Part shown: positions 42,701 through 56,793 of the stretch, piece by piece | Layout: the number at the start of each line of letters is the position of its first letter | How positions within the stretch are numbered: position 1 is the stretch's first letter | DNA from: a virus | DNA length: 64,000 nt | Strand: one strand, 5' to 3' | IMG/VR virus record: IMGVR_UViG_3300044530_000662 | Span: 53,286 to 117,285 of that record | The notes under the pieces: generated by a model | What the model saw: the letters and a program-made list of their open reading frames with translations, nothing else | What the model was told of the DNA's origin: nothing | Databases searched by the model: none | Position numbers and translations under genes: made by a program

Positions 42701-42910
42701 TTATTTATCAGCTACTCTACCAAATGTAATATTATTCTTTACTCTGATATCCTTGTGTGTAAACTGCCACATCTCTCCAGTGTCATTTAATATCACAGTA
42801 TATATAGTATCTGTCTCATGACCATAGTCTGTAACTAACCAAATAATCCCGGATCCTTTAGGTGTATTAACTTCTAGTCTATTATGTGGTTCATATATCA
42901 TAGTTCTCAA
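42701..42910 (-). CDS. Conserved small phage protein (TPKG.G...DYG.ETD)
   Basis: 69 aa. Confidence 0.6.
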   Translation of the reverse strand: MRTMIYEPHNRLEVNTPKGSGIIWLVTDYGHETDTIYTVILNDTGEMWQFTHKDIRVKNNITFGRVADK

Positions 42911-43565
42911 TTTTTATATCTTCATCTCTTGCAACTAAACTCTTATATAAATCTATATCAGTAGACCATTCTTTACCTGTCCAAAACTCAAACCCGGAAT
43001 AGTTACTCTTATACTCACAACACTTCTCATACCCACCAAGTAAATACACATACTCACATTCTAGAACTTTAGCAGTATTGCACTCTACCATCTGTGCTAT
43101 GGTACCCAGAGAAAGTTTTGGATCTTTATAATCCCATATAAACTGATATGCCACAAACTGATTCTCAAACTGTTTATAAAAACTAACTCCAATCAATTCA
43201 CCATTCCAATATTCTATAACATTACAATCAGCAAAATTATCTAAATCAATATCTCTTTTAAACCCATGATACTTACAGTACTCTTCATGCAATACTTCAT
43301 ACTTCTCTTTATTACTGATTACATTACCAGCTTGTACATATATCTTTTGACTTAACTTCTTAGTAGTCTTACTAGGTTTATACTCAGCTAGATTTATCCG
43401 GGTACTCCTTTCATTATACCATCTATCCTTCCAAGGAATCCATCCTTCCTTTAATGCATCTATAGAAGATTCATCAGAGTCAAGAATACCATAAGCACAA
43501 TTAACAATTATCTCCAAGTCACTTACTTTGCCAAAGCCTTGGATATGATCAAAGAATACTTTCAT
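42891..43565 (-). CDS. Bpt/ATE1-like aminoacyl-tRNA-protein transferase
   Basis: STRINLAEYKPSKT (ATE_N end), EKYEVLHEEY, IEYWNGELIGVS, YQFIWDYKDPKLSLGT, YVYLLGGY, CEYKSNY. These parallel Bpt F.PSRSQ, EKY.LY..Y, VEY..DG.LIAV, YTFYDP....SLGT, YLYLGYW, KM.YK. Confidence 0.75.
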   Translation of the reverse strand: MKVFFDHIQGFGKVSDLEIIVNCAYGILDSDESSIDALKEGWIPWKDRWYNERSTRINLAEYKPSKTTKKLSQKIYVQAGNVISNKEKYEVLHEEYCKYHGFKRDIDLDNFADCNVIEYWNGELIGVSFYKQFENQFVAYQFIWDYKDPKLSLGTIAQMVECNTAKVLECEYVYLLGGYEKCCEYKSNYSGFEFWTGKEWSTDIDLYKSLVARDEDIKIENYDI

Positions 43566-43569
43566 ATTG

Positions 43570-43997
43570 TAAAGATATAAAAAAACCCACTCTGTAAGTG
43601 GGTGCTCAACTTTAGGTAATGAGATTGCAAGGACTTGCCTCTGACCATATCACTCACAATTTTTGCAAGGATAAAAAACCCATGCAGTTTATATTCGTCA
43701 ATATTCTTACATGGGGGTTTGTCATAAGTTATACTTTTCAGCTTTCCTTTACACAGAAAAAGACCAGAGATGGAGCTGTGGCAGAACAGTCTCAGGTACT
43801 GTAGTACAAAGATATAAAAAAACCCAGACAGTAATTCTTGATCAATGACACTTATCTGGGTGTGTTACCAGTTATACACTTATAGATATCATGCTTTCCC
43901 GGTAACAAGAAGTCCAAGAAAAGTGAGCAGAGCTTACGGTATGCTTCCCTGGATCTGATCCTATGTTTACTCAACACAGGTGCACCTTACAAAGATA
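43570..43997 (-). ncRNA. Three tandem promoter-sRNA-terminator units (candidate small RNAs)
   Basis: -7 elements at 43990-43997, 43807-43814, 43666-43673 and 43570-43577. Each of the last three sits directly after a hairpin plus T-tract. The only ORF noticed is a 23-codon one crossing a terminator. Confidence 0.5.
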
Positions 43998-44331
43998 TAA
44001 AATTTTATAGAATTTTTAAAAGTTGTATATAAGACATGGTAGTGGGTCCTTATAAAACTTACCCCGGGGGTGCAAAACAAAGTGGTATACCCCCTACAAA
44101 TTCTACAGAGGAAGCCATACTCTAGAAAATATTTGTAAAACATTTATTTCTAGAAAAGTATTTCTATTCTACTACAAGAAGTAAGTAGTACATACTATAT
44201 TATATCTTATGTACTAATTATTAATACAAGAAGAAAGAGAGAAGGTGCTCTTGCTCACACACAAGCCAACACAAGAGAACACAGAAGACAAGCCATATAT
44301 ACAACTTCTATTGTAATATAAATTATATACT

Positions 44332-44532
44332 ATGAAAATATATTATGCAGAGATTACTGACTTTGCAGGCAAAGCAGTAATGAATTTAGAATACACAGCA
44401 TCAGCTAAACATAGTGCTAAGCTTGCTGAAATATTCATAAAGAATTGCCCACCTGCTCAAGGATTCAACATAAGGCTTGCCTTTATTGAAGCTAAGCATA
44501 TTGCAAGTATGATGAATAACTATAGAGGATAA
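44332..44532 (+). CDS. Early cassette gene 1
   Basis: 66 aa with motif upstream and hairpin terminator over the stop codon. Confidence 0.7.
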   Translation: MKIYYAEITDFAGKAVMNLEYTASAKHSAKLAEIFIKNCPPAQGFNIRLAFIEAKHIASMMNNYRG

Positions 44533-44585
44533 ACCTCTATAGTTTTTTTATTAGCAACTTCTATTGTATTATAAAACTATATGCT

Positions 44586-44753
44586 ATGAAATACAAGATT
44601 CAATTCCACATAGTTTCTGTTGATGAGATTAAATCTATACAACAGAAACTAAATACTTGGCTTACTACAGGCCATATGAAAAAGTTTGAAACATTTGTTC
44701 TACCTGATGGAAGACTTCTGTTTCAATGCTTAGTGTTAAAATCAGAGGAGTAA
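44586..44753 (+). CDS. Early cassette gene 2 (55 aa)
   Basis: Read manually: MKYKIQFHIVSVDEIKSIQQKLNTWL...KSEE. Confidence 0.7.
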   Translation: MKYKIQFHIVSVDEIKSIQQKLNTWLTTGHMKKFETFVLPDGRLLFQCLVLKSEE

Positions 44754-44805
44754 TCCTCTGTTTTTTTTCTGCATAACAACTTTTATTATATAAGAAATAT
44801 ATACT

Positions 44806-44988
44806 ATGACTGCAAACCAACTATTTGATTTAGCTGAAACGCTAGATAAAGCAATTGCTACCTTAGAAACAGAAGGTAAGACATTTAAAGAAAGATGTGA
44901 ACTAGCTGATTTAAAAGCATATAGAGCCTATGTTCAAGAAGGTATTGAAGCTGTTATATCAGCAATGGAGAGTAATACAGGGGAATAA
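44806..44988 (+). CDS. Early cassette gene 3 (helical hairpin)
   Basis: 60 aa with cassette architecture. Confidence 0.7.
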   Translation: MTANQLFDLAETLDKAIATLETEGKTFKERCELADLKAYRAYVQEGIEAVISAMESNTGE

Positions 44989-45038
44989 CCTGTATTACTT
45001 TTTTATTAGCAACTTTTATTATATAAGAAATATATACT

Positions 45039-45257
45039 ATGATAAAACTAATGTTTGTATGGTTGGTATTAACTGGACAAGTTAAGTATCAACAAAGTGG
45101 TGAAGATGGTAGAAAGCAATATGCTTTGTTCTTTGAAGATGGTAAAGTAATAGATTATGCTTATAAGCAAGAAATCTATGAATACATTCAAACTGGCACA
45201 TTTGAGTATGATGATACTTTGGATGACAAAGTAACAAAAGAACATAAGGGGGAGTAA
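45039..45257 (+). CDS. Early cassette gene 4
   Basis: 72 aa with a hydrophobic N-terminus and cassette architecture. Confidence 0.7.
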   Translation: MIKLMFVWLVLTGQVKYQQSGEDGRKQYALFFEDGKVIDYAYKQEIYEYIQTGTFEYDDTLDDKVTKEHKGE

Positions 45258-45307
45258 TCTCCCTTTTTTTCTTAAGCAACTTTTATTGCAATAAAAATAT
45301 ATACACT

Positions 45308-45499
45308 ATGATAACAACATTTATTATTGAGCAAATAGAACAGATTGAAGGAATTCTGATTCTATTAGGAAAACAAACTGACGCAGTTGTGTTAAAAGCA
45401 TTTGAGCAATTACCTGAAAAGGAAATAATAGCTTACAGAGATTCATTAGTTCAAGAATTTGAAGTTATGAATCCGGGGAAAACTTTGTTAGTTGTATAG
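45308..45499 (+). CDS. Early cassette gene 5
   Basis: 63 aa with cassette architecture. Confidence 0.7.
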   Translation: MITTFIIEQIEQIEGILILLGKQTDAVVLKAFEQLPEKEIIAYRDSLVQEFEVMNPGKTLLVV

Positions 45500-45580
45500 T
45501 TTATGGGGGAAGCAATTCCCCTTTTTTTCTTCTATACAAAAGCAACTTTTATTGAAATAAAAATCTTAAAACCATACAAT

Positions 45581-45967
45581 ATGAAAAAGTTAGATGCTTA
45601 CAAACAAGCAAAATTAGATTACAACTTTGCTAAAGAAACAGTTAACAAACTACACGAAGTCCTTAGATTTTATGGAACAGTTGCTGTTGGTAATAGTATT
45701 ACCATTAATTCTTCAAGTTCTGATAAACAATTTGTCTACTCAGTAGGTATATTGAATAATCAAATCAATGCTTGTAAAGAATTAGGTTTAGATCCTCAAG
45801 AGTATGAAGAATCTAAAGCTACTGTTATTCAGCTTAGAGCTACAAGCAAAGATTTAGTAGCCTGGAGTGATTACGCAAATGACTTGTACACTTATATGAG
45901 TAAGGTACACAATCTTTTAGATAAAGATGAGTTGTTCAAGTTAATTGAGATTCCTGTTAGACCGTAA
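45581..45967 (+). CDS. Early cassette gene 6 (start 45581, 128 aa)
   Basis: The ORF-track start at 45503 lies inside the previous terminator; the ATG after the motif is at 45581. Confidence 0.7.
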   Translation: MKKLDAYKQAKLDYNFAKETVNKLHEVLRFYGTVAVGNSITINSSSSDKQFVYSVGILNNQINACKELGLDPQEYEESKATVIQLRATSKDLVAWSDYANDLYTYMSKVHNLLDKDELFKLIEIPVRP

Positions 45968-46045
45968 TAATATAAGGGTGTGTAGAAATACATACCCTTT
46001 ATTATTTTACACAAGCAACTTTTATTTAATCTTAAATTATATACT

Positions 46046-46195
46046 ATGGACAAAGTAACAATTGTGATCAGTTGGGAAGAGTATGAAACTATGATCAGTG
46101 CTATTAAAGCAATGAAGAATATGGTAGACAGTGACAAGTTAGATCAACTCTATGTAAAGTTATACATTGAAAGAAAAGTAGAGAAAGGGAAGTAA
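46046..46195 (+). CDS. Early cassette gene 7 (49 aa)
   Basis: Read manually: MDKVTIVISWEEYETMISAIKAMK...EKGK. Confidence 0.7.
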   Translation: MDKVTIVISWEEYETMISAIKAMKNMVDSDKLDQLYVKLYIERKVEKGK

Positions 46196-46263
46196 TTCCC
46201 TTTTTTTAAGCCTTCGGCTAGCCTATAGCAACTTCTATTTTACTAGAATTAAAACTATATATT

Positions 46264-46689
46264 ATGAACAAAATTATTGAAGTAGCCTTAAAAGGCAGAT
46301 TTAGTACTGATGATGTAACAAGCTTAATGGACGTAGTAACTGCTACACCTAATCCTGAAATGGCAACAGAGATTCTGTTAGGTGTCTATGTAAAACCTGA
46401 TCTTCCTAATGTTGTTGTTACAGATCAAGGATTAGAAAAGACTGTGGTTAGTGTTGACTATTGGACTAATTATGTTACTTATTCTTATCAAGAAGAAGTA
46501 AGAAAACAGTTCTATATTGACAAAGACACTGACACAAGTTTAATTACTCTTGACAATTACAAGGATTATGAAAGAAGATATGATGATGATAATATCAGAT
46601 CCTTTTATCTTCCAACAGGAGAAATTAAAACTAGAAAATCAAATTGTAGTTTTGGTGATTGGTTATCACAAGAAGCATTAGCAGTTTAA
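46264..46689 (+). CDS. Early cassette gene 8
   Basis: 141 aa; N-terminal region loosely similar to 51629-52057 (PNPEMATEIL / PNGEEIAKLL). Confidence 0.7.
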   Translation: MNKIIEVALKGRFSTDDVTSLMDVVTATPNPEMATEILLGVYVKPDLPNVVVTDQGLEKTVVSVDYWTNYVTYSYQEEVRKQFYIDKDTDTSLITLDNYKDYERRYDDDNIRSFYLPTGEIKTRKSNCSFGDWLSQEALAV

Positions 46690-46865
46690 AGATAAGGGGG
46701 AGAAATCCCCTTTTCTTTTTTGTCTCCACCGTGTGGAACAAGTTGACTTTGCCACTGAAAATGAGACAGTTACAAAATGAGAGTTTTTGACTGTTAGAAG
46801 CCTACGGCTTAGCCTTTAGCAACTTTTATTGTAAGAAAATATTATTAACCCAAAAACAAAAAGTT

Positions 46866-47270
46866 ATGATTGCAAAAACAAAGATTGCGTTGTTGTTCAA
46901 AGAAGAAACAACACCTAGTGGTAATGTGCAAAAAGTTGCCAACATTAAGGCTACTCTTGTTAGGTTAAGTGATAAAGAATTCTCATATGCTAATGCAGAC
47001 GGGGAAACTCTAACTTACAAGTTGGCTACTATTAAATTCTCTGATGCGAATGATAATAGCCACACCAAAGCTGATGTAGTAGTGTATAACACTAGTTATG
47101 AGCAAGGTATGGAAGTAGGGGAAACATACTTAGGTAAAGTTTCTAGAAGCAAAAATGCTGATGGAACTGCACGTAAACCTTGGTATACTTTATCTAGCCT
47201 TGTAGTTGCTTCTGAGAATTCTGATGAGGACTTTGAAGAGGTTGAGGTATCACAAGAGATTGGGATATAA
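46866..47270 (+). CDS. Early cassette gene 9, possible OB-fold ssDNA-binding protein
   Basis: Beta-rich core with an acidic tail (SDEDFEEVEVSQEIGI). Confidence 0.45.
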   Translation: MIAKTKIALLFKEETTPSGNVQKVANIKATLVRLSDKEFSYANADGETLTYKLATIKFSDANDNSHTKADVVVYNTSYEQGMEVGETYLGKVSRSKNADGTARKPWYTLSSLVVASENSDEDFEEVEVSQEIGI

Positions 47271-48047
47271 CAGGGATTGTAATAGGGGTGTAGAAATACA
47301 CCCTTATTATTTTAGTAAAGCTATACTAAGTATAGTGTATATAGTATGTTTAATTGTCTTTCAGACAATAGCCTTTTGCAACTTTAATTGTAAGAGAAAG
47401 AGTTTGACTGCTTGTGCGGTCAAGCAACGGTCATTCACCGGTCAATGAGTGGCACATTACTAGTATGTGGAGTGTTGGGTACAGATATAAGAATGTCTGT
47501 ATTATAGGTATGAATAGTTGTTATAGTTAACACTAAATAATTACTGAAAGCTAGTGTCAGTGAGGGATTGGGTGTAATACCCTCAGTCATTCTTTACTAG
47601 TGATGATAACACTACTTTTACCATACAGGCTTAGCTCTACACATTATATGGCTAACACAGTGTCTATATTACCTACTCTTACTCTTATTACTATTAGTGT
47701 TACTATCTCTTATAGTATTATATAAAGTATCACAGTATAAGCTTCCGGGATTACAGTAATTTCCGGTCATAAAGTCCTATTGTAGCATAGTTAACACAGC
47801 AGATAGGCATTACCTGTATTCCTGAGTATGAATCAAAACTACTCTTATTTACTAATCAGTATCCTTGAACAAATGATAGGAACAGATTAAACTATGTATT
47901 TCAATAGATATGGAGAGGCAGTAATCCTCTCTGCAACTTGTACAGCTAACCAATAATGCTGTACCACAAATCTTGTAGGTTGTTAGAAACCTTCCCTTAT
48001 AAGGCTCAAGAATAACACGCTTGAGATAGGTACGTGCAGTGTGTTAT

Positions 48048-48177
48048 TACTCTCATCCAAGCAGGTAAACACAATCAGTTATGCTGAGCGTGTGGATATT
48101 ATACCAAGATAGTAGCATATGAAGCATAGTAATATGTAGAGGCTATCAAATTCAAGGATTGCAACCTTGTGAGAGTA
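48048..48177 (+). ncRNA. Structured RNA motif, copy A
   Basis: TACTCTCA/TGAGAGTA closing stem, TCCAAGCAGG, internal stems, CAAGG-ATTGCAA-CCTTG hairpin. Confidence 0.6.
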
Positions 48178-48865
48178 CACGGTCTGTCTATAATAGCAGA
48201 TAAGTCTTGCGGTTCACAACAAGATACTAACAGGTGGAAGTCCTGTTATTTATTAAACACAATTATAGTTCTTAGTGTTGAAAAAGGGATTTGAACTACC
48301 CAATTATGTACTATTTATTTAAGTTAACAGGGCATCAGTACGTGGAGTTCCTTAAGTCCAGCCAAGGTGTAATCAGGAATGATTACTAGGGTAAGACTCC
48401 ACCAGTTATTCTCAAATACTGCCACAATTTTAAAGTCTTTACATAACCTAATAAGAGAATAGGGTAAAGATTAAAAACAGTTTATTAGTTTACTATAGTG
48501 TTCTAGCACTAAAAATAACTGATGGTGTGTTATACCTAATAACAATGCTCTTGAACTTCCCGGACTCATAGAGATTAAGCATGTAAGAATCCGGGTTTCT
48601 GTTGAGCATTCAGATTCAGCTCACAGAGTGATGATTTATTATCACTAGAAAGGTAGATAAGTGTTACTTTGTAACTGCCATAGTTGGGAGATTTGTCTGG
48701 GTAGCAATACCAGATCGGACAAGTCAATGAAAGACTATGGAATGTTATAACAATATTTGTTATTGTTATTATTATTATTATAGTACCTAATGAATCTGAT
48801 TTGACCACAAGGTTTCAGGCTTAAACTCTCATCCTGTAAAGCAGAGTTTGACTTGTGGTTTTTTA

Positions 48866-48975
48866 TACTCTCATCCAAGCAGGATAGAGACTATTGCAAA
48901 ACTAAGTTGGGTGAGGCTAACCTGTAAAACTGCACTTATGAGTAATAGTCCAAGGGTTGCAACCTTGTGAGAGTA
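48866..48975 (+). ncRNA. Structured RNA motif, copy B
   Basis: Same 5' TACTCTCATCCAAGCAGG and 3' CAAGG-GTTGCAA-CCTTGTGAGAGTA; different interior with a GACTATTGC/GTAATAGTC stem. Confidence 0.6.
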
Positions 48976-49063
48976 CTAATAAGTAGGTTTGTGTTGCAAA
49001 TGCAGCAATTTAAGGAAATGTAATTGTAAAGGATCGCAACCTTTTTACAGAGTACTACTACTT

Positions 49064-49165
49064 ATTTTTAATGCACCACAACTCACTTCCCAAGGGTGAG
49101 CAGTTGTAGTATGGGTGTGCCCTACTAACAAAAACAAGGACTACAACTGAGTGCAGAGGGATTAT
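49064..49165 (+). ncRNA. Twister-like self-cleaving ribozyme (P5 present, P1 weak)
   Basis: U^AA-UGCA-CC, P4 CUCAC/GUGAG around (U)UCCCAAGG, P5 CAGUUGUAGU/ACUACAACUG, UGCA-GA-GGGA. T1 UCCC/GGGA; T2 CC/GG. Confidence 0.55.
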
Positions 49166-49202
49166 TAATTTGTAACTTATTAATTAACTTAAAACTATAC
49201 TT

Positions 49203-49409
49203 ATGATTAAAGTAACTAAACAAGAAGCAATTGATATGCTATTAGCTAACAATTACAGAGCAATTGAAATTCTTGAAACATGTGACCATGATGGTGAAGA
49301 TGAAGATGTATTTGTTACAATGGCTTATGTAGATAAATCACATAAACATGTACCATTAAAAGTGTTAAAACAAAACATGGATATGTATGATTTCATATAT
49401 ATAATATAA
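49203..49409 (+). CDS. Hypothetical protein
   Basis: 68 aa with an A-rich TIR (AAAACTATACTTATG). Confidence 0.6.
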   Translation: MIKVTKQEAIDMLLANNYRAIEILETCDHDGEDEDVFVTMAYVDKSHKHVPLKVLKQNMDMYDFIYII

Positions 49410-49410
49410 T

Positions 49411-49528
49411 TAATACACCATTCTAACTTAGGTTAGACAGTTGTAATACCTTCGGACTGCTGTGTATACGCAAGGTCTTGTAGAAGTAATCAAGCAGGGA
49501 ATGCTTCTATTACAACTGTGGTGTATTA
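49411..49528 (+). ncRNA. Three-way-junction element related in outline to the twister-like RNA
   Basis: TAATACACCA/TGGTGTATTA, TCTAAC/GTTAGA, CAGTTGTAAT/ATTACAACTG. Confidence 0.45.
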
Positions 49529-49736
49529 ATTTATACTGGGAGCATGTGACCATGAAAGAGGCATGCATATTTACTCTAATTAGGCACAAGTATGACTCTA
49601 AGTGCCGAGCTACCTAGGGAGTTGAGTTACCCGATTTATTATGAGAACTGAAAAAGATTGTCCGTTTATAGTGCGGGGCTGAGAAGATCTGTAAGCCAAC
49701 ACTATTTCTTTTGATTATTAACTCTGATTAAAAATT

Positions 49737-49940
49737 ATGAAAATGAAGAAAATGAGTCAACACACCTGGGAAATATGGTTCCTGGGATCAATATTTGGTT
49801 GCATAGTGCCTATGTTGGCAGTTATGTGTGAATCAAGAGATCCACAAGTTATGAAATATGCTACTATAGCGTTAGTAATTTCTTTTATCTCTTTTATTTT
49901 ATGTGTTATTGTTGGTAATAAAACTGAAAACAAATTATGA
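49737..49940 (+). CDS. Two-TM membrane protein
   Basis: 67 aa, hydrophobic. Confidence 0.6.
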   Translation: MKMKKMSQHTWEIWFLGSIFGCIVPMLAVMCESRDPQVMKYATIALVISFISFILCVIVGNKTENKL

Positions 49941-50122
49941 AAAAACAAACCATTTACCTTAGTCTAAGTTTCCTGTCATTAGTTATGGCAGGAATTTCTA
50001 TGTTAGCTATGTATACTATAGCAGACAATCAAACCTTAATAGGAGCCATTATTGCTTTTACTTTATCAGTAATGATTGGTACTTTATCTATGTCATCTTA
50101 CTTACATTATAAAACACAGTAA
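49937..50122 (+). CDS. Two-TM membrane protein
   Basis: 61 aa, hydrophobic. Confidence 0.6.
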   Translation: MKKQTIYLSLSFLSLVMAGISMLAMYTIADNQTLIGAIIAFTLSVMIGTLSMSSYLHYKTQ

Positions 50123-50206
50123 GATGGATATATTAATTGTTACAGTATTATCAATGCTGTTAGTTTACTCTCAAAGTTATCTTAATAGAAATTAAAAACT
50201 ATAATT

Positions 50207-50470
50207 ATGGAAACTGTTTACTGGACTATGAAGAATGGTCAAAAGATTGATGTTGATACTATGGACATTCAACATCTCCGGAATACTCTTAAAATGCTTA
50301 TCAAAGCTAAGAGAGCTGTAACTACATCTAAACCTAAGTTTGAGGTACACGGTGAAATTGCTAGTGAGTTTGCTGATATGGCAAGACTATATGCAATTAG
50401 TCCTGAATTAACTTGTACTTGTGATGAAGTACATGTATGTCAACAATGTTTTGAACTATCTATAAATTAA
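50207..50470 (+). CDS. Conserved phage protein (WTMKNG.KI.VD.M...HL.N) with a C-terminal CxC..CxxC
   Basis: 87 aa. Confidence 0.65.
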   Translation: METVYWTMKNGQKIDVDTMDIQHLRNTLKMLIKAKRAVTTSKPKFEVHGEIASEFADMARLYAISPELTCTCDEVHVCQQCFELSIN

Positions 50471-50474
50471 AGCA

Positions 50475-50702
50475 ATGAAAAAACTACAAAGAAAATTAGA
50501 AGCTCTACAAGATGAGCTTTATGATTTGCATTTTATAGCTTCTTCTGAAGTATATCAACAAAAAAGAGCTGATATAGAATTTCAGATTGTTCTTATAGAA
50601 GAAGCAATTGAATTGGAAAAGAAAATGCTACCTTTTAAAATTACTTTTGCAGCAGCTTGTGCTGTTATAGTAGGATTACTTATTTATTCATTATTAAAAT
50701 AA
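50475..50702 (+). CDS. Coiled-coil protein with a C-terminal TM
   Basis: 75 aa. Confidence 0.6.
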   Translation: MKKLQRKLEALQDELYDLHFIASSEVYQQKRADIEFQIVLIEEAIELEKKMLPFKITFAAACAVIVGLLIYSLLK

Positions 50703-50708
50703 ACCAAA

Positions 50709-51020
50709 ATGGCAAAAAAAAAAACGATTGACTTTTGTTTTGATGATACAGATATTAACTTAATGAAAGAAGAATTATTGAAAAAACTTAATGATGAGAT
50801 AATTGCTGATCTAGAAGCTAAATTAGACATAGCTTATAGAGAGCAAGAACAAATGCTAAAAGAACTGAAAAGATGGACAGATGCTTTTCCTTATGCATTT
50901 AGAGAACTTGAAGAACATGCTGGAAAAATTACTTCAGAAGATGTTACTTATCATGCAAAGCTTCTCTTAAAGATTATGGAGAATAAGTTTGGTTATAAAC
51001 CAAAAATGACAGAGCTTTAA
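50709..51020 (+). CDS. Hypothetical coiled-coil protein
   Basis: 103 aa. Confidence 0.6.
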   Translation: MAKKKTIDFCFDDTDINLMKEELLKKLNDEIIADLEAKLDIAYREQEQMLKELKRWTDAFPYAFRELEEHAGKITSEDVTYHAKLLLKIMENKFGYKPKMTEL

Positions 51021-51210
51021 AGAAAATGTGTTGTTCCCTTGAGAAAGGAATTATAGTATAGAAAGGTGATTAAAGATACATATCACCACAACACAGAGGC
51101 TCTCAACCTCAAGACACATAAACTTCAGTTCCCACACAGCGGTGAGATGGGCTAAGTTATATACAATTCCTCGGAGCTGGGAGTAGAAAGCTGAAGAGTG
51201 TGTCTTTTAT

Positions 51211-51295
51211 AGCAAGGTGGTGTAATTGGTAACACGGTCCTAATTTAATATGGTGAATACCAGGTCTAGTATCTGTTCAAATCAGATCCTTGCTA
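51211..51295 (+). tRNA. tRNA-like element with an aberrant, expanded anticodon arm (isotype not assignable)
   Basis: Acceptor AGCAAGG/CCTTGCT, D-arm GTGT-AATTGGTA-ACAC, T-arm ATCTG-TTCAAAT-CAGAT. The 34 nt between these arms do not form a canonical 7-nt anticodon loop; no CCA. Confidence 0.55.
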
Positions 51296-51411
51296 CAGTT
51301 GCAACAGTGCAACTTTGCCTTACCCTGACAGGAACAAAAACCTAGAGGCTTAAAAGTGGGTGACAGCTGGAAAGACAGCATTTTTTATTTATAAACTGTA
51401 ATATCAAAGCA

Positions 51412-51627
51412 ATGGAAGTAACACTTATTCACTCTGTCTTAGGTTTTAATAGGAATATTGAGATTAAAGACCAAAATGGGGAAACTATCAAAACTGGTGC
51501 TAGGACTATATATCCTACAGTTATGTTAGAACAACTACAATATAAGATTCTTGATAAAAGTGTTTTTACACATTATAATCAAGCATTACTAGACAAAATC
51601 AGAGACTGCAGAAGAAATATAGACTAA
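51412..51627 (+). CDS. Hypothetical protein
   Basis: 71 aa. Confidence 0.6.
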   Translation: MEVTLIHSVLGFNRNIEIKDQNGETIKTGARTIYPTVMLEQLQYKILDKSVFTHYNQALLDKIRDCRRNID

Positions 51628-51628
51628 T

Positions 51629-52057
51629 ATGAGCAATAAGATTCACTTAGAACTTGAAGAGACTGATTTATATAATGCTCTCAAAACAATAATTAACCAT
51701 CCAAATGGAGAAGAGATAGCAAAACTACTAACTCCTTATATTGGTGGTAGTCCAGATTGTTCAAAATGGTTTTTTAAACTATTGTATGGTAAGACTTTAC
51801 CTGATAAGATACCTGTAGGTACTATATGTTTGACACATGTTAACAATCTTACTTATGAAGTTGATAAAATACTAACTAAAGCATCTGATCTTTGTGATAA
51901 TGAAGGTATGATAGCTTGTACAATAGTTGAGTTTAGAGGTTATCATGACTGGAGACACTTTGAAGTTACATCACAAGGTATTGATTCATCTGGTAATCAA
52001 AAAGTATTTAAGAGTTATCTTATGGGAGATCAGTTAGAGCTATTAGAGGAATTTTAA
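51629..52057 (+). CDS. Hypothetical protein
   Basis: 142 aa. Confidence 0.65.
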   Translation: MSNKIHLELEETDLYNALKTIINHPNGEEIAKLLTPYIGGSPDCSKWFFKLLYGKTLPDKIPVGTICLTHVNNLTYEVDKILTKASDLCDNEGMIACTIVEFRGYHDWRHFEVTSQGIDSSGNQKVFKSYLMGDQLELLEEF

Positions 52058-52062
52058 GATAG

Positions 52063-52070
52063 TATATTTG
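52063..52070 (+). promoter_or_regulatory. Bacteroidota -7 element TATATTTG
   Basis: Perfect match in the intergenic region. Confidence 0.45.
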
Positions 52071-52129
52071 TGGATATGCTTTTCCAAACAAAATAATACA
52101 GGGAGTTGTAATATACTCCCTTTATTATG

Positions 52130-52146
52130 TTAGCTATATAGTGCAA
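52130..52146 (+). promoter_or_regulatory. Second copy of TTAGCTATATAGTGCAA
   Basis: Follows a terminator hairpin and precedes the 52216 gene. Confidence 0.5.
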
Positions 52147-52215
52147 CAATTTATAATGCAGGATAACTTATAATGCTTGAGAATATCATATATTTACTCA
52201 ACTTTATAAATCAGT

Positions 52216-52485
52216 ATGCTTTATCAATTGCCTAACGGCAAAGTTATCTACTTAACTATAGATCAATACCTAGATCTCACTGATAATGACATACAATATC
52301 TTATGTCAGTAAATGCTGGCGACCACGCACAAAATCCTTTCACAGACTCTGCTGTTCATGAGAACACAAGAGAGAAATATTATGACTTTGATTATCTATC
52401 AGATGATGAAAGTTCTGATGATATTATATCAGATGATGAACCATTTGATGATATAATAGACCTTACGGGCCCACTGGATATATAA
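52216..52485 (+). CDS. Conserved small acidic protein (LPNGKVIYLTIDQYL)
   Basis: 89 aa with an acidic tail. Confidence 0.65.
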   Translation: MLYQLPNGKVIYLTIDQYLDLTDNDIQYLMSVNAGDHAQNPFTDSAVHENTREKYYDFDYLSDDESSDDIISDDEPFDDIIDLTGPLDI

Positions 52486-52594
52486 TACCTGAATTGCAAT
52501 AATGGTATTTACAACTTATTACTAGCTTGAGTAGCTAGTATTATAGTATTCTACTCACACATCTATTTATTTATTTATTTTAAAACTTAAAGTT

Positions 52595-53059
52595 ATGAGT
52601 TCAAAAGCAATTATTGTAGCAGATGCTACTACAGGTTCAGTTATTAACATGTCTAGTAATCCAGATTTTGGTTATGTACGTGTTGAACAAGCAGTAAATC
52701 AATATGATGATAATGGTTTCTTAAGAAGAAAGAAATTATCAGCAATTATTTCTGCACCAATTGGTGATTTACAAGAAGCTGGTTATTATGCAGGTCAAAT
52801 GTTAGATGGTAGAGTTATTATTCAAGAGTCTACATCACCATGGAATGAAAAAAATCCTGAACGTGACCTTAAAGTAGCTGGTTCTACAGGTATTGTATGC
52901 CGTTTAGATGGTGCTCCTATTTACAGACGCACATTATACACTGAGAAAGAGAATGTTAAAGATACTCTTATTGCTCATGATAATGTTGAAGAGTTAAGAG
53001 CAGCATATGAAACAAACAAAGTCAGTGCTATTAAACCAAATGAAGAGTTTGGTATTTAA
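52595..53059 (+). CDS. Highly expressed hypothetical protein, possible SSB-like
   Basis: 154 aa, biased codons, own terminator, tail ...EEFGI. Confidence 0.5.
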   Translation: MSSKAIIVADATTGSVINMSSNPDFGYVRVEQAVNQYDDNGFLRRKKLSAIISAPIGDLQEAGYYAGQMLDGRVIIQESTSPWNEKNPERDLKVAGSTGIVCRLDGAPIYRRTLYTEKENVKDTLIAHDNVEELRAAYETNKVSAIKPNEEFGI

Positions 53060-53126
53060 TTAACACTTAATGTATTATGAGAGGGAATGGGTAACTGTTC
53101 CCTCTTTTTATTTATGATTAAAGAAA

Positions 53127-53615
53127 ATGTATAAAATGGAAAAGTTAAAACAACAGATTAAAGATTATCAGTTAAATGCAGGCAAAACCTACATGAGTTA
53201 TGAAACTGATGGGTACTCACAATACCAAACATACCTTTACAAAAGAGCACTATATGGTTTAGATGCTCTAACACAACAAGAACTAGCTACTATGTGTAGC
53301 AAAAAGAAACAAAGAATAATTAATGTTTATAAAAGAGCACAAGTTGCACTTAATAAGTTTAAGCAAGAAGTTACTATACAATATAGTAATTTTATATTCA
53401 AAACTTTGTTTCCAAATAGTCCTATTACAGAATTCTTAATGGCTGATACTGAGACTGATGAGAAGTTCAAGAATACTTTAACTTTTAAAGATTTAGGCAT
53501 CAACAAAGAACAAATTATTACTATCTTTATTAATGAAGGTATCCTTCCTAAAAACTTTTTAAGTTTAGATAAGGATCCAAACAGTTTACCAAGATTAAAA
53601 ACCACTAAAAACTAA
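53127..53615 (+). CDS. Hypothetical protein
   Basis: 162 aa. Confidence 0.65.
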   Translation: MYKMEKLKQQIKDYQLNAGKTYMSYETDGYSQYQTYLYKRALYGLDALTQQELATMCSKKKQRIINVYKRAQVALNKFKQEVTIQYSNFIFKTLFPNSPITEFLMADTETDEKFKNTLTFKDLGINKEQIITIFINEGILPKNFLSLDKDPNSLPRLKTTKN

Positions 53616-53619
53616 AATT

Positions 53620-53820
53620 ATGACAAGAAAAGAATTTTTAAACAAGTTTGAAGACTTAACTAGACAGTTAGAAGATCTAGTACGTCAATTACCTTCTATA
53701 CCTGAATTAGAAGAAGATATTTATAAAGAAGATGAAAGCAAAATTGCTGTATCTGCAGACATAATGAGCTTAGACATGAGTGTGGATAATTTATCAGACT
53801 TATACTTTGATCAAGACTAA
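53620..53820 (+). CDS. Small acidic helical protein
   Basis: 66 aa. Confidence 0.6.
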   Translation: MTRKEFLNKFEDLTRQLEDLVRQLPSIPELEEDIYKEDESKIAVSADIMSLDMSVDNLSDLYFDQD

Positions 53821-54220
53821 AATCTGTGATGGATGTGGTTTAGAAAAACCTATCTGGAAAAGTAGTGGAACCGGGGGATTTAAGTATTGCAAATATTGTT
53901 GGAGTTGCCAGAATCCCAAGAATAAAGATAATATACAGAAACCAACTGATTATAAGATCCCCCAGGTTTCTGCTAAAAGAAAGAAAAAAGATGCTGAGTA
54001 TCTTAAATTAAGACAAAGATTTCTTACTGAGAATCCATTATGTGTAGTGAAGGTGAACGGATGTGGCCATAGTGCCACTGATGTTCATCATTCATTTGCT
54101 GGAGCTAACAGAGATGCTTTTTACTTAGTTCAGAGTACCTGGTTTGCAACATGTAGAAACTGCCATGATTGGATCCATGCTCATCCGGAAGAAGCAAGAG
54201 TAATGGGTTGGTTAAAATAA
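53780..54220 (+). CDS. HNH-type (beta-beta-alpha-Me) endonuclease with an N-terminal Zn ribbon
   Basis: CDGC...CKYC, then C....C...ATDVHH...CRNCHDWIH. True start is probably slightly downstream. Confidence 0.7.
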   Translation: MWIIYQTYTLIKTKICDGCGLEKPIWKSSGTGGFKYCKYCWSCQNPKNKDNIQKPTDYKIPQVSAKRKKKDAEYLKLRQRFLTENPLCVVKVNGCGHSATDVHHSFAGANRDAFYLVQSTWFATCRNCHDWIHAHPEEARVMGWLK

Positions 54221-54224
54221 AACT

Positions 54225-55130
54225 ATGACAGAAGAAGAACAATTAAAAATAATTCAGGCTAAGCTAAACATTACTGACAAAAGAACAGTAAAGCAAATCT
54301 TAGCACATAAAGAGCTTTGTGAAGATATTATAAACAGAGATGTGATATCTGAACAAGAGCTGGTGGAGGAATATCAAATTCCTCAGAGCCATTTAAAAAG
54401 TTTAAAACAACAGAATAAACTATCTTTCTTTGCAAGTACAGGTGAAGTAAATAAAATTAGCCGTGGATCTAAAGTATATTATTTTGTAGATGAAGTAAAA
54501 GACTTGTTTGGATATAACATCCGTTACAATAAATCTCATTCTTTTAAGAAAAGTATATTTAACAAGCTAGTGGTTGATATGTCAACAGAACTATGTACAA
54601 GTACAGAAGCTGGAGCATTAAAAATGTTTCTTATAAATAATTTATCAGTTGAAGAAATTGGTGAACATTACATTATAACCAATGAAAGAACAAATCAATT
54701 AATATCTAAGGCTTATAGAAGAATTGTTAGTAAAGTGTTTCAGCTTAATAAAATGTTTAAAAGCTATAGAACAAATCTTGAGTATCAAACTGAAAATGAG
54801 TTATTAAAAAAACAAAATACAGAATTATACAATAAGTTTTTAAGAGTTAAAGAAAATGATGTTCTTAAAGATCTTAAGTCTAATACAAATGTTGAACACT
54901 TTGTTAAACATGGTTATGATGTTAAAGACTTAGTTAAAGGCTTACATGAATTTAAAGAATATTTGTCTGTAAGAGCACTTACATGTTTAAAAAATGCATA
55001 TATTGAAAATCTTGATGAGCTACTATCTTATCCTAAACGTGATCTTATAAGATTAAGAAATATGGGTGAGAAGACTGTAAGTGAGATTTGTGATTGGTTA
55101 GAAGATAAGTACAATTGGGAATTAAAATAA
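54225..55130 (+). CDS. HTH protein fused to an RNA polymerase alpha-CTD-like domain
   Basis: C-terminal LSVRALTCLKNAYIENLDELL...LIRLRNMGEKTVSEI is the alpha-CTD signature; central sigma-4-like LSVEEIGEHY...ERTNQLISKA. Confidence 0.75.
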   Translation: MTEEEQLKIIQAKLNITDKRTVKQILAHKELCEDIINRDVISEQELVEEYQIPQSHLKSLKQQNKLSFFASTGEVNKISRGSKVYYFVDEVKDLFGYNIRYNKSHSFKKSIFNKLVVDMSTELCTSTEAGALKMFLINNLSVEEIGEHYIITNERTNQLISKAYRRIVSKVFQLNKMFKSYRTNLEYQTENELLKKQNTELYNKFLRVKENDVLKDLKSNTNVEHFVKHGYDVKDLVKGLHEFKEYLSVRALTCLKNAYIENLDELLSYPKRDLIRLRNMGEKTVSEICDWLEDKYNWELK

Positions 55131-55135
55131 GAAGT

Positions 55136-55411
55136 ATGCCAGAAGTTCAAGTTACAACTACAGTAGATATTGATCAATATGTTGATGTAGATATTGAAGA
55201 TATTCTAGATGAGTGTAGTGAAAAAGAATTAGAAGCAGTTGTTGACTATCTTGTAGATAATGAAATAATTAAAGCAAATAGAATTTTGCCTAAGTATATT
55301 TCTCTATCTGAAGAAGAGTTTAACAAAAATGTAGAAAAGCTATCAGAGCTTTATTTAGTACTATCTAATGAAGAGAGTGCTATAATAGATAGTATATTAA
55401 AAAGATACTAA
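55136..55411 (+). CDS. Acidic hypothetical protein (probable start 55136)
   Basis: MPEVQVTTTVDIDQYVDVDIEDILDE... Confidence 0.6.
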   Translation: MPEVQVTTTVDIDQYVDVDIEDILDECSEKELEAVVDYLVDNEIIKANRILPKYISLSEEEFNKNVEKLSELYLVLSNEESAIIDSILKRY

Positions 55412-55430
55412 AATCATTAATTAAAAAACT

Positions 55431-56531
55431 ATGACAAAAGATAGACAAGACATACAAATGGAAGCTCTAGCTGCTACTGATGGTAAGCAAAAAGTATCCG
55501 TAGTTTTGGGAACCGGAGTTGGTAAAACCTTAGTAGGTTTAACTCATATGGATAGAAATACTACACCTTTGATGAAATGTCTTGTTGTGGCACCTAAAAA
55601 AGCTATATTTCAATCCTGGAAAGATGATGCTGTCAAGTTTGATATGCATCATCTACTAGGTAGAATAGTATTTACAACTTATCTCAGCTTAAATAAGCAT
55701 GATCCTAAAGATTATGATGTAGTATATCTAGATGAGATGCATAGCTTAAAAGATAGCCACAGAGGATTTTTACAGTTATACAAAGGTAAAGTACTTGGTC
55801 TTACTGGTACACCTCCTAAAAGAGATTATTCAGAGAAAGGTAAATTAGTACAAGAGTTCTGTCCTGTAGCATACACATTTCAAGCAGATGATGCTATTGA
55901 AAATGGTATCCTAAATAATTACCAAATTATTGTACATAAGTTATATCTATCAAAAGATAAAAACTATGAGACAATTGCAGGTGGTAGATCATACATGACT
56001 TCTGAAGAAGCTAATTATATCTACTGGTCAAGAAGAATTGATGCTGGTGGTGGTAATATGCATATGATCAGAGTTATGAGAATGAAAGCTCTTAAAGAGT
56101 ATCCTACAAAAGAAAAGTATGCTAAGCTATTATTTAATAGTATAGATACTAAATGTCTTTTGTTTGCAAATACTCAAGATCAGGCTGATAAATTATGCTC
56201 TCACAGCTACCATAGCAAGAACAAGAGTTCTGAAGAGAATCTTCAGTTGTTCAAGGACGGCAAGATTACTAAACTTTCAGCAGTAGACCAGTTGAGTGAA
56301 GGTATTAATATACCTAATCTTAGACAAGCTATTGTTATGCATAGTTATGGTAATGAAAGAAAGTTTAATCAGAAACTAGGTAGACTATTAAGACTTAATC
56401 CAGATGACACAGCTATTATCCACATACTATGTTATATGGATACAGTAGATGAAGTCTGGGTAAGAGAAGCAGTAGAAAACTTGGATCAAGAGAAAATTAT
56501 TTGGAAAGATTTTAATATTTCAGTATCTTAG
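55431..56531 (+). CDS. Superfamily 2 helicase (UvsW/DEXH-like)
   Basis: LGTGVGKT, DEMH, GLTGTP, LSEGINIP, QKLGRLLR. Confidence 0.9.
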   Translation: MTKDRQDIQMEALAATDGKQKVSVVLGTGVGKTLVGLTHMDRNTTPLMKCLVVAPKKAIFQSWKDDAVKFDMHHLLGRIVFTTYLSLNKHDPKDYDVVYLDEMHSLKDSHRGFLQLYKGKVLGLTGTPPKRDYSEKGKLVQEFCPVAYTFQADDAIENGILNNYQIIVHKLYLSKDKNYETIAGGRSYMTSEEANYIYWSRRIDAGGGNMHMIRVMRMKALKEYPTKEKYAKLLFNSIDTKCLLFANTQDQADKLCSHSYHSKNKSSEENLQLFKDGKITKLSAVDQLSEGINIPNLRQAIVMHSYGNERKFNQKLGRLLRLNPDDTAIIHILCYMDTVDEVWVREAVENLDQEKIIWKDFNISVS

Positions 56532-56535
56532 AAGT

Positions 56536-56793
56536 ATGGAAGATATCAAAACACACAAGATTAGTATCTATAATGATGCTATTAATGAATTTGGTTATAT
56601 CATAGCTTGTTTAATTAGGTTTTGTAATCATGAACCTTTGCAGGCAGAACAATGTGCTATTATAGCAGATAATGCTGGTAAATGTCATGTAAAATCAGGA
56701 TCCTATGAAGAAATGCTTAATATTAAAACTACTTTTAAGAGATTAGATATCAAAACTAAAATTGAAGAATATGAAAATAGTAGTTTGCATTAA
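56536..56793 (+). CDS. clpS: ClpS-like N-degron adaptor (Bacteroidota type)
   Basis: HKISIYNDAINEFGYIIACLIRFCNHEPLQAEQCAIIADNAGKCHVKSGSYEE parallels Bacteroidota ClpS L.L.NDDVNTFDHVI..L...C.H...QAEQC...VH..GKC.VK.G. Confidence 0.8.
   Translation: MEDIKTHKISIYNDAINEFGYIIACLIRFCNHEPLQAEQCAIIADNAGKCHVKSGSYEEMLNIKTTFKRLDIKTKIEEYENSSLH

Follow-up and report, generated by a model that had tools for sequence, protein, structure and literature searches.

A phage genome with an ATE/Bpt-like transferase cassette and a divergent ClpS core, two genes distributed independently overall

The closest described case to the genes considered here is Gp53, a small early protein of phage SPO1 that resembles an adaptor for B. 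subtilis ClpCP and is proposed to alter what the host Clp unfoldase degrades (PMC6873191). We analyzed a window of 64 kb (the whole stretch of DNA under study, which is the final 64 kb of the 117,285-bp IMG/VR virus record IMGVR_UViG_3300044530_000662, 99% complete according to CheckV) that encodes a small ClpS-like protein and, 13 kb away on the opposite strand, a virus-type relative of the aminoacyl-tRNA transferases Bpt and ATE1 (Table 1). Gp53 is no ClpS homologue and its binding was shown by experiment, whereas the phage ClpS is known from its sequence and a model. Our search of the literature found no phage-encoded Bpt/ATE-type transferase, no crAss-type ClpS, and no account of either phage protein. 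An earlier note on this DNA had proposed the two genes as candidates for the writer and the reader of a single phage N-degron pathway. The reading that we favor, and to which we give an even chance, is that they represent two independent accessory modules: an aminoacyl-tRNA transferase cassette, and a delivery-incompetent ClpS that would act as a decoy or competitor.

The two genes are distributed independently overall. Within the family of ~115-123-kb phages to which the window belongs, both were found in five genomes (G000, G003, G005, G135, G138), and three of the eight near-complete relatives with ClpS (>=90% complete; G129, 99%; G134, 98%; G133, 94%) carry it without a transferase, as judged by Pfam and by the family profile. 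None of 46 viral contigs with more distant transferases has a ClpS above the cut-off, including a 158-kb genome that is complete and one of 121 kb at 90% completeness, and a 187-kb contig whose transferase is 59% identical to that of the window also has no ClpS. Three huge phages encode a Bacteroidota-type ClpS and no transferase (ATE_C). Independent occurrence across relatives was the very outcome that the earlier note had named beforehand as telling against its proposal, and the single unit of writer and reader found no support in the comparison. That one phage genome carries both a "writer" and a "reader" gene is in itself no evidence for a pathway.

Both open reading frames proved to be real, their coordinates, Pfam matches, and folds being in agreement. 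The transferase scores 36.1 bits against Pfam ATE_C (gathering cut-off 25) over residues 109-194. Its AlphaFold model, built from the family alignment (pLDDT 85), retrieves ATE1 structures first in a Foldseek search (8tzv, 7tif, 7wg1; E 4e-9 to 1e-6, TMq ~0.6), followed by MprF, FemX, and LFTR, and thus suggests that the overall fold and the GNAT-type ATE_C domain are those of bacterial Bpt, an Asp/Glu leucyltransferase, and of eukaryotic ATE1 (7WG1/7WFX, 7TIF, 8E3S, 8TZV). The only sequence profiles that match the transferase are ATE_C and arginyltransferase models, with none from the Fem or MprF families. The phage proteins are both divergent, since they stay far below the NCBIfam equivalog cut-offs: the best score of the transferase is 30 bits, against 170-358 for arginyltransferase and Bpt, and that of ClpS is 15 bits, against 86-160. 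The profile searches and structure predictions that the earlier note had proposed bear it out in part, as the ATE1 and ClpS folds were recovered and ATE_C and ClpS score above their Pfam cut-offs. The full "Bpt/ATE motif set" that it had seen in the transferase is reduced to the ATE_C half. ATE_N gave no Pfam match at E<=1, and no conserved Cys is present in the N-terminal 60 residues among 104 family members, so that the Cys4 metal site of Bpt and ATE1 is missing; by motif register, the Cys-bearing loop is ~8 residues shorter.

For individual residues, the family profile was placed on K. lactis Ate1 (klAte1) by hidden Markov model alignment to 7WFX, and roles were taken from the mutational map of the yeast enzyme (PMC9351520). 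The active-site pair Y303/K304 corresponds to Y185/K186 of the transferase and the tRNA-contacting W260 to W144, all of them conserved; the Tyr-Lys, the Trp, and a basic helix (SKTTKKLSQK in the transferase) are common to Bpt and ATE1. In the donor pocket, S255 and S273 are replaced by A139 and A157 (Ala in Bpt at both positions) and Y289 by V173 (Leu in Bpt), while E277 is kept as E161 (Gln in Bpt). The resulting Ala/Ala/Glu/Val pocket would be Bpt-like at three of its four positions (Ala, Ala, Val), with a charged fourth position as in ATE1. Lys186 is present in 103/104 diverse family members; R53, R56, Y174, G197, and W200 are near-invariant, and Y185, W144, and E161 are also conserved. Such conservation across the 104 members implies that the transferase is under selection. 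Gene decay was considered as well, and is ruled out for both the transferase and the ClpS families by strong residue conservation.

The acceptor side of the enzyme looks different from that of its cellular relatives. In klAte1, the metal-binding cysteines are C23, C26, C95, and C96, and R80 of the GxRRSG motif recognizes the acidic N-terminal residue (PMC9351520). At the place of GxRRSG, as set by the register of sequence motifs and not by structural alignment, the phage family carries G-W-[IL]-P (I43, P44; GWIPW in the window), and the Arg that reads acidic N-termini has apparently been lost. The enzyme most likely moves an amino acid from host aminoacyl-tRNA onto an amine acceptor, to judge from its residues. 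That acceptor is probably not the canonical Asp/Glu N-terminus, because the Cys4 site and apparently the Arg are lost and the pocket reads Ala/Ala/Glu/Val. If the activity is confirmed, phages would use host aminoacyl-tRNA for extra-translational protein modification together with a new and tiny partner protein.

This partner, a 66-amino-acid (aa) protein, is another feature that sets the virus-borne transferase apart from Bpt and ATE1, and the two would together form the first module. The ATG of its gene overlaps the stop codon of the transferase (ATGATATATGA), and the two are translationally coupled. The 66-aa protein lies directly downstream of the transferase in 52/55 close loci (71-90% identity). 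It is better conserved than its enzyme; for example, in L055 it is 52% identical to that of the window, vs. merely 34% for the transferase. In four distant loci (L203, L209, L212, L226), a copy lies just upstream of the enzyme. The protein may serve as the acceptor or as a specificity subunit. No Pfam or PDB relative was found for it, and in the Atlas it matches unnamed viral clusters only, with no match for phrog_3704. The latter is a ~200-aa protein, annotated as "PurM" or "ferredoxin" in T4-like cyanophages and pelagiphages, whose gene directly adjoins the ATE_C-like gene, often with an overlap of 1-4 nucleotides (nt), in 69/78 distant marine viral loci (L154-L233, e.g., L162:9360-10765). 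Neither Pfam nor PDB offers a relative of it, and it is absent from the phage genome of the window. A profile-profile comparison gave no relation between phrog_3704 and the 66-aa protein.

Although absent from the literature that we searched, both families are widespread. The virus-borne transferases form 419 clusters at 50% identity and, in a single motif scan, occur in at least 526 IMG/VR contigs; the phage-type ClpS occurs in at least 320 viral contigs. A tblastn search with the transferase against 50,697 GenBank phage records gave no match, and the same search with ClpS returned only three unannotated huge phages. The PHROGs and PADLOC libraries held no meaningful match for either protein, and the sole viral look-alike of the transferase in BFVD is an unnamed fragment.

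The second module may correspond to a ClpS core that was acquired in a single event from a lineage of Bacteroidota hosts. The phage protein scores 41.8 bits against Pfam ClpS (PF02617, gathering cut-off 23), and its AlphaFold model (pLDDT 90) superposes on solved cellular ClpS (among them the E. coli structures 1MBX/2W9R/3O2B) with a TM-score of 0.84 and a root-mean-square deviation of ~1 Å (1.2 Å to 9b1p). Its description in the earlier note as a Bacteroidota-type ClpS holds: a scan that took a single genome from each species yielded over 527 ClpS genes, almost all of them from Bacteroidota, that have in common with it the QAEQCA helix, the ACLIxxC motif, and Cys and Gly positions, at 40-58% identity. 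The phage sequences form one clade among Bacteroidota ClpS (SH-aLRT 98.5). We also noticed a 2.7-kb contig (L066, JBIKJV010000380.1) with a phage-type ClpS in a Phycisphaerales metagenome-assembled genome (MAG), which looks like phage DNA carried along by binning.

In several respects this core departs from cellular ClpS, for which we used 98 Bacteroidota sequences as a comparison set, against 65 members of the phage family. The first departure concerns the N-terminal extension. The equivalent of N34 is preceded by only 12 residues in the phage protein, whereas the cellular Bacteroidota sequences have a median of 27 and E. coli ClpS has 33; the first strand begins at residue 7 in the model, and there is no in-frame start codon upstream. 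Delivery in E. coli requires the ClpS extension to enter the ClpA channel, and stops when the extension is blocked (PMC9663308). The second departure lies in the N-degron pocket, whose constraint appears relaxed. In E. coli numbering, N34 (N13) and D35 (D14) are kept, while D36 is replaced by Ala (A15) and H66 by Asp (D45). An acidic residue at D36 is found in 40/65 phage sequences vs. 84/98 cellular ones, and His at H66 in 38/65 vs. 93/98. More generally, the pocket-loop positions T38, M40, E41, and V43, together with H66, are 82-100% conserved in cells vs. 24-73% in phages. Despite this relaxation, N34 and D35 are near-invariant in the phage family and the QAEQCA helix is conserved. In E. 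coli, a ClpS mutant with Ala at D35, D36, and H66 binds substrates poorly (PMC9810338), and the UBR1 N-domain, itself an N-degron reader, has Asp at the H66 position (PMC8346999). The third departure is a conserved acidic and aromatic C-terminal tail (EEYExS.H), seen in the phage ClpS family and not in cellular ClpS. Finally, the phage gene has no aat or clpA-type gene next to it.

With its extension gone, its pocket relaxed, and a C-terminal tail gained, the phage ClpS is most likely a competitor or decoy that would disturb ClpS-dependent degradation in the host, rather than an adaptor that delivers substrates. The suggestion of the earlier note that the phage might shield its own proteins is still a live idea, for ClpS alone. 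The N-degron pathway of the Bacteroidota has received very little study, and a decoy of this kind would provide a natural inhibitor of it.

The host is probably a member of the Bacteroidota, and probably of the Chitinophagaceae. A near-identical whole phage contig of 117,852 bp (L065, JBIPNK010000148.1) sits among the contigs of a Chitinophagaceae MAG obtained from Lake Mendota; it looks like phage DNA carried along by binning and gives a weak hint of the host. The ClpS type and the three copies of the motif TTATATCTTT[GA] in the window, described below, are consistent with such a host. Of 61 Chitinophagaceae genomes, 57 encode ClpS, 48 encode the Leu/Phe transferase Aat, and seven encode an ATE_C protein. 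The aat gene often directly adjoins clpS on the same strand (e.g., G105:C5:116191-117056), which looks like a reader-writer operon of the Bacteroidota N-degron pathway, to go by gene order. With clpS and aat, the host lineage therefore owns a writer-reader pair open to interference by a phage. The candidate host MAG encodes ClpB and a ClpC-like Hsp100 of 862 aa, and no protein in it scores above the ClpA cut-off. In the phage genome we found no ClpP and no ClpA-type or Hsp100 gene, so the phage ClpS must act on components of the host.

Several observations weigh against two independent modules with a decoy ClpS. The need for the N-terminal extension was established for ClpS and ClpA of E. coli, not for a Bacteroidota ClpS working with a ClpC-like unfoldase. 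The pocket of the phage ClpS may still bind, because the UBR1 N-domain also has Asp at H66. The residue that reads acidic N-termini was placed at Pro44 of the transferase by motif register alone, not by structural alignment. One of the relatives without a detectable transferase, the 99% complete genome G129, keeps the 66-aa protein (G129:C1:21238-21432, E 1e-35), which indicates that this protein is not merely a subunit of the enzyme. The host assignment stems from a phage contig in a Chitinophagaceae MAG, a promoter box, and the type of ClpS. Lastly, both genes stand together in five of the eight near-complete genomes of the window's own subclade, and an unrelated 45-kb phage-like contig (L147) carries a transferase 34% identical to ours 3.5 kb from a ClpS-like gene that has no detectable similarity to the ClpS of the window. 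Because of this co-occurrence and of the pairing in L147, a functional link is possible in some lineages. As a separate observation on L147, a SpoU-type methylase, the ClpS-like gene, a UvsW-like helicase, and the ATE_C-like gene lie within 5 kb (L147:3453-8783), and the ClpS-like protein has a DNN pocket loop and an N-terminal tail of ~20 residues.

Among the alternatives, we consider it unlikely, though worth keeping in view, that the phage ClpS functions as an adaptor whose N-terminal specificity has shifted, and that it retargets host ClpC/ClpA-ClpP independently of the transferase. The near-invariant N34 and D35, the intact fold modeled with high confidence, and the Asp that UBR1 also has at the H66 position would all suit such a role, as would the phage precedent of SPO1 Gp53, which is proposed to retarget ClpCP (PMC6873191). 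However, the first strand begins after only about five residues, which would put the unfoldase channel out of reach, and constraint on the pocket positions is looser throughout the phage family than in cells.

It is quite unlikely that the transferase works elsewhere than on protein N-termini, by aminoacylating a cell-wall precursor, a lipid, or a small molecule, or by building a peptide on the 66-aa protein. MprF, FemX, and LFTR do follow ATE1 in the fold search, the Cys4 site and (by motif register) the Arg for acidic N-termini are missing, and the distant enzymes are coupled in an operon to the unexplained phrog_3704; yet the profiles point to ATE_C and arginyltransferase models and not to the Fem or MprF families, and the conserved residues are precisely those that align with the Tyr-Lys, the Trp, and the pocket Glu of ATE1.

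We give a similarly slim chance to a cooperation of the two modules restricted to the subclade that has both. There, the transferase, guided by its 66-aa partner, would re-tag N-termini using host aminoacyl-tRNA, and the tail-less ClpS would block or divert the host reader. If so, the phage would decide which neo-N-termini survive, for instance those of its own processed, injected proteins, and the virus would thereby have seized control of writing as well as reading in bacterial N-degron proteolysis.

Least probable of all, and in our view very doubtful, is an N-degron pathway of the phage's own, in which the transferase writes a destabilizing residue, the phage ClpS reads it, and the host Clp protease degrades the product: both folds were found, the catalytic residues of the transferase are intact, the genes meet in the window's subclade, a different transferase and a different ClpS-like gene lie close together in L147, and the host family keeps clpS beside aat, so that writer-reader coupling exists in the lineage, but this unit is unsupported because the two genes vary independently among relatives (3/8 near-complete carriers of ClpS have no transferase, and 46/46 transferase contigs no ClpS) and lie far apart on opposite strands, the transferase has another constant partner and usual neighbor in the 66-aa protein, and ClpS lacks the delivery tail and two residues of a relaxed pocket.

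Regarding the surrounding genome, the window was identified as phage DNA by a minus-strand block with a major head protein, a portal, a large terminase, and an amidase. A megablast search of 20 kb against the 50,697 phage records gave no match. Coding density of the genome is 94% under translation table 11, and each of the three stop codons is in use, which rules out an alternative genetic code, a possibility prompted by the matches to huge phages. The coordinates of the features discussed are collected in Table 1.

Table 1. Position and main characteristics of the features in the 64-kb window.
Feature	Position	Strand	Evidence or remark
Virus-type ATE_C/Bpt-like aminoacyl-tRNA transferase, 224 aa	42891..43565	-	Pfam ATE_C and ATE1 fold
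66-aa partner protein	42701..42901	-	ATG overlaps transferase stop, common letters ATGATATATGA
Terminator hairpin (43603-43585) followed by TTATATCTTTA (43580-43570)	43570..43603	-	Near match to -7 box
ClpS-like core, 85 aa, Bacteroidota type, without N-terminal extension	56536..56793	+	Pfam ClpS and fold
SF2 helicase-like gene (context only)	55431..56531	+	Pfam ResIII and Helicase_C; ends 4 nt before ClpS start

The sequence ahead of the transferase may contain its promoter. The Bacteroidota -7 promoter box is TAnnTTTG. After the terminator hairpin, TTATATCTTTA ends 4 nt before the ATG of the transferase, and its letters suggest that it acts as a promoter. The motif TTATATCTTT[GA] has three copies in the window (at 43570, 43807, and 43990), against 0.54 expected by chance; they share the minus strand, lie no more than 430 bp apart, and fit the -7 box. 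In addition to the minus-strand terminator hairpin upstream of the copy at 43570, a possible hairpin upstream of the copy at 43807 was seen by eye only. The stretches of ~200 nt between the copies (43566-44200, minus strand) contain no convincing open reading frame, and may correspond to a pair of small RNAs that precede the transferase cassette.

Two further features lie between the transferase and ClpS genes. ARAGORN proposed a tRNA-like gene at 51211-51296 (plus strand) whose variable arm is long and whose anticodon loop cannot be read (Lys or stop); the call was not confirmed by Rfam: a search of 43.4-52 kb gave no match, and no tRNA at 51211-51296 at E<=0.1. Two genes upstream of ClpS, a 301-aa protein (54225-55130, plus strand) matches the C-terminal domain of the bacterial RNA polymerase alpha subunit at 50.6 bits and contains a stretch similar to sigma-70 region 4 (21.7 bits, slightly below the cut-off), making it a candidate phage transcription factor.

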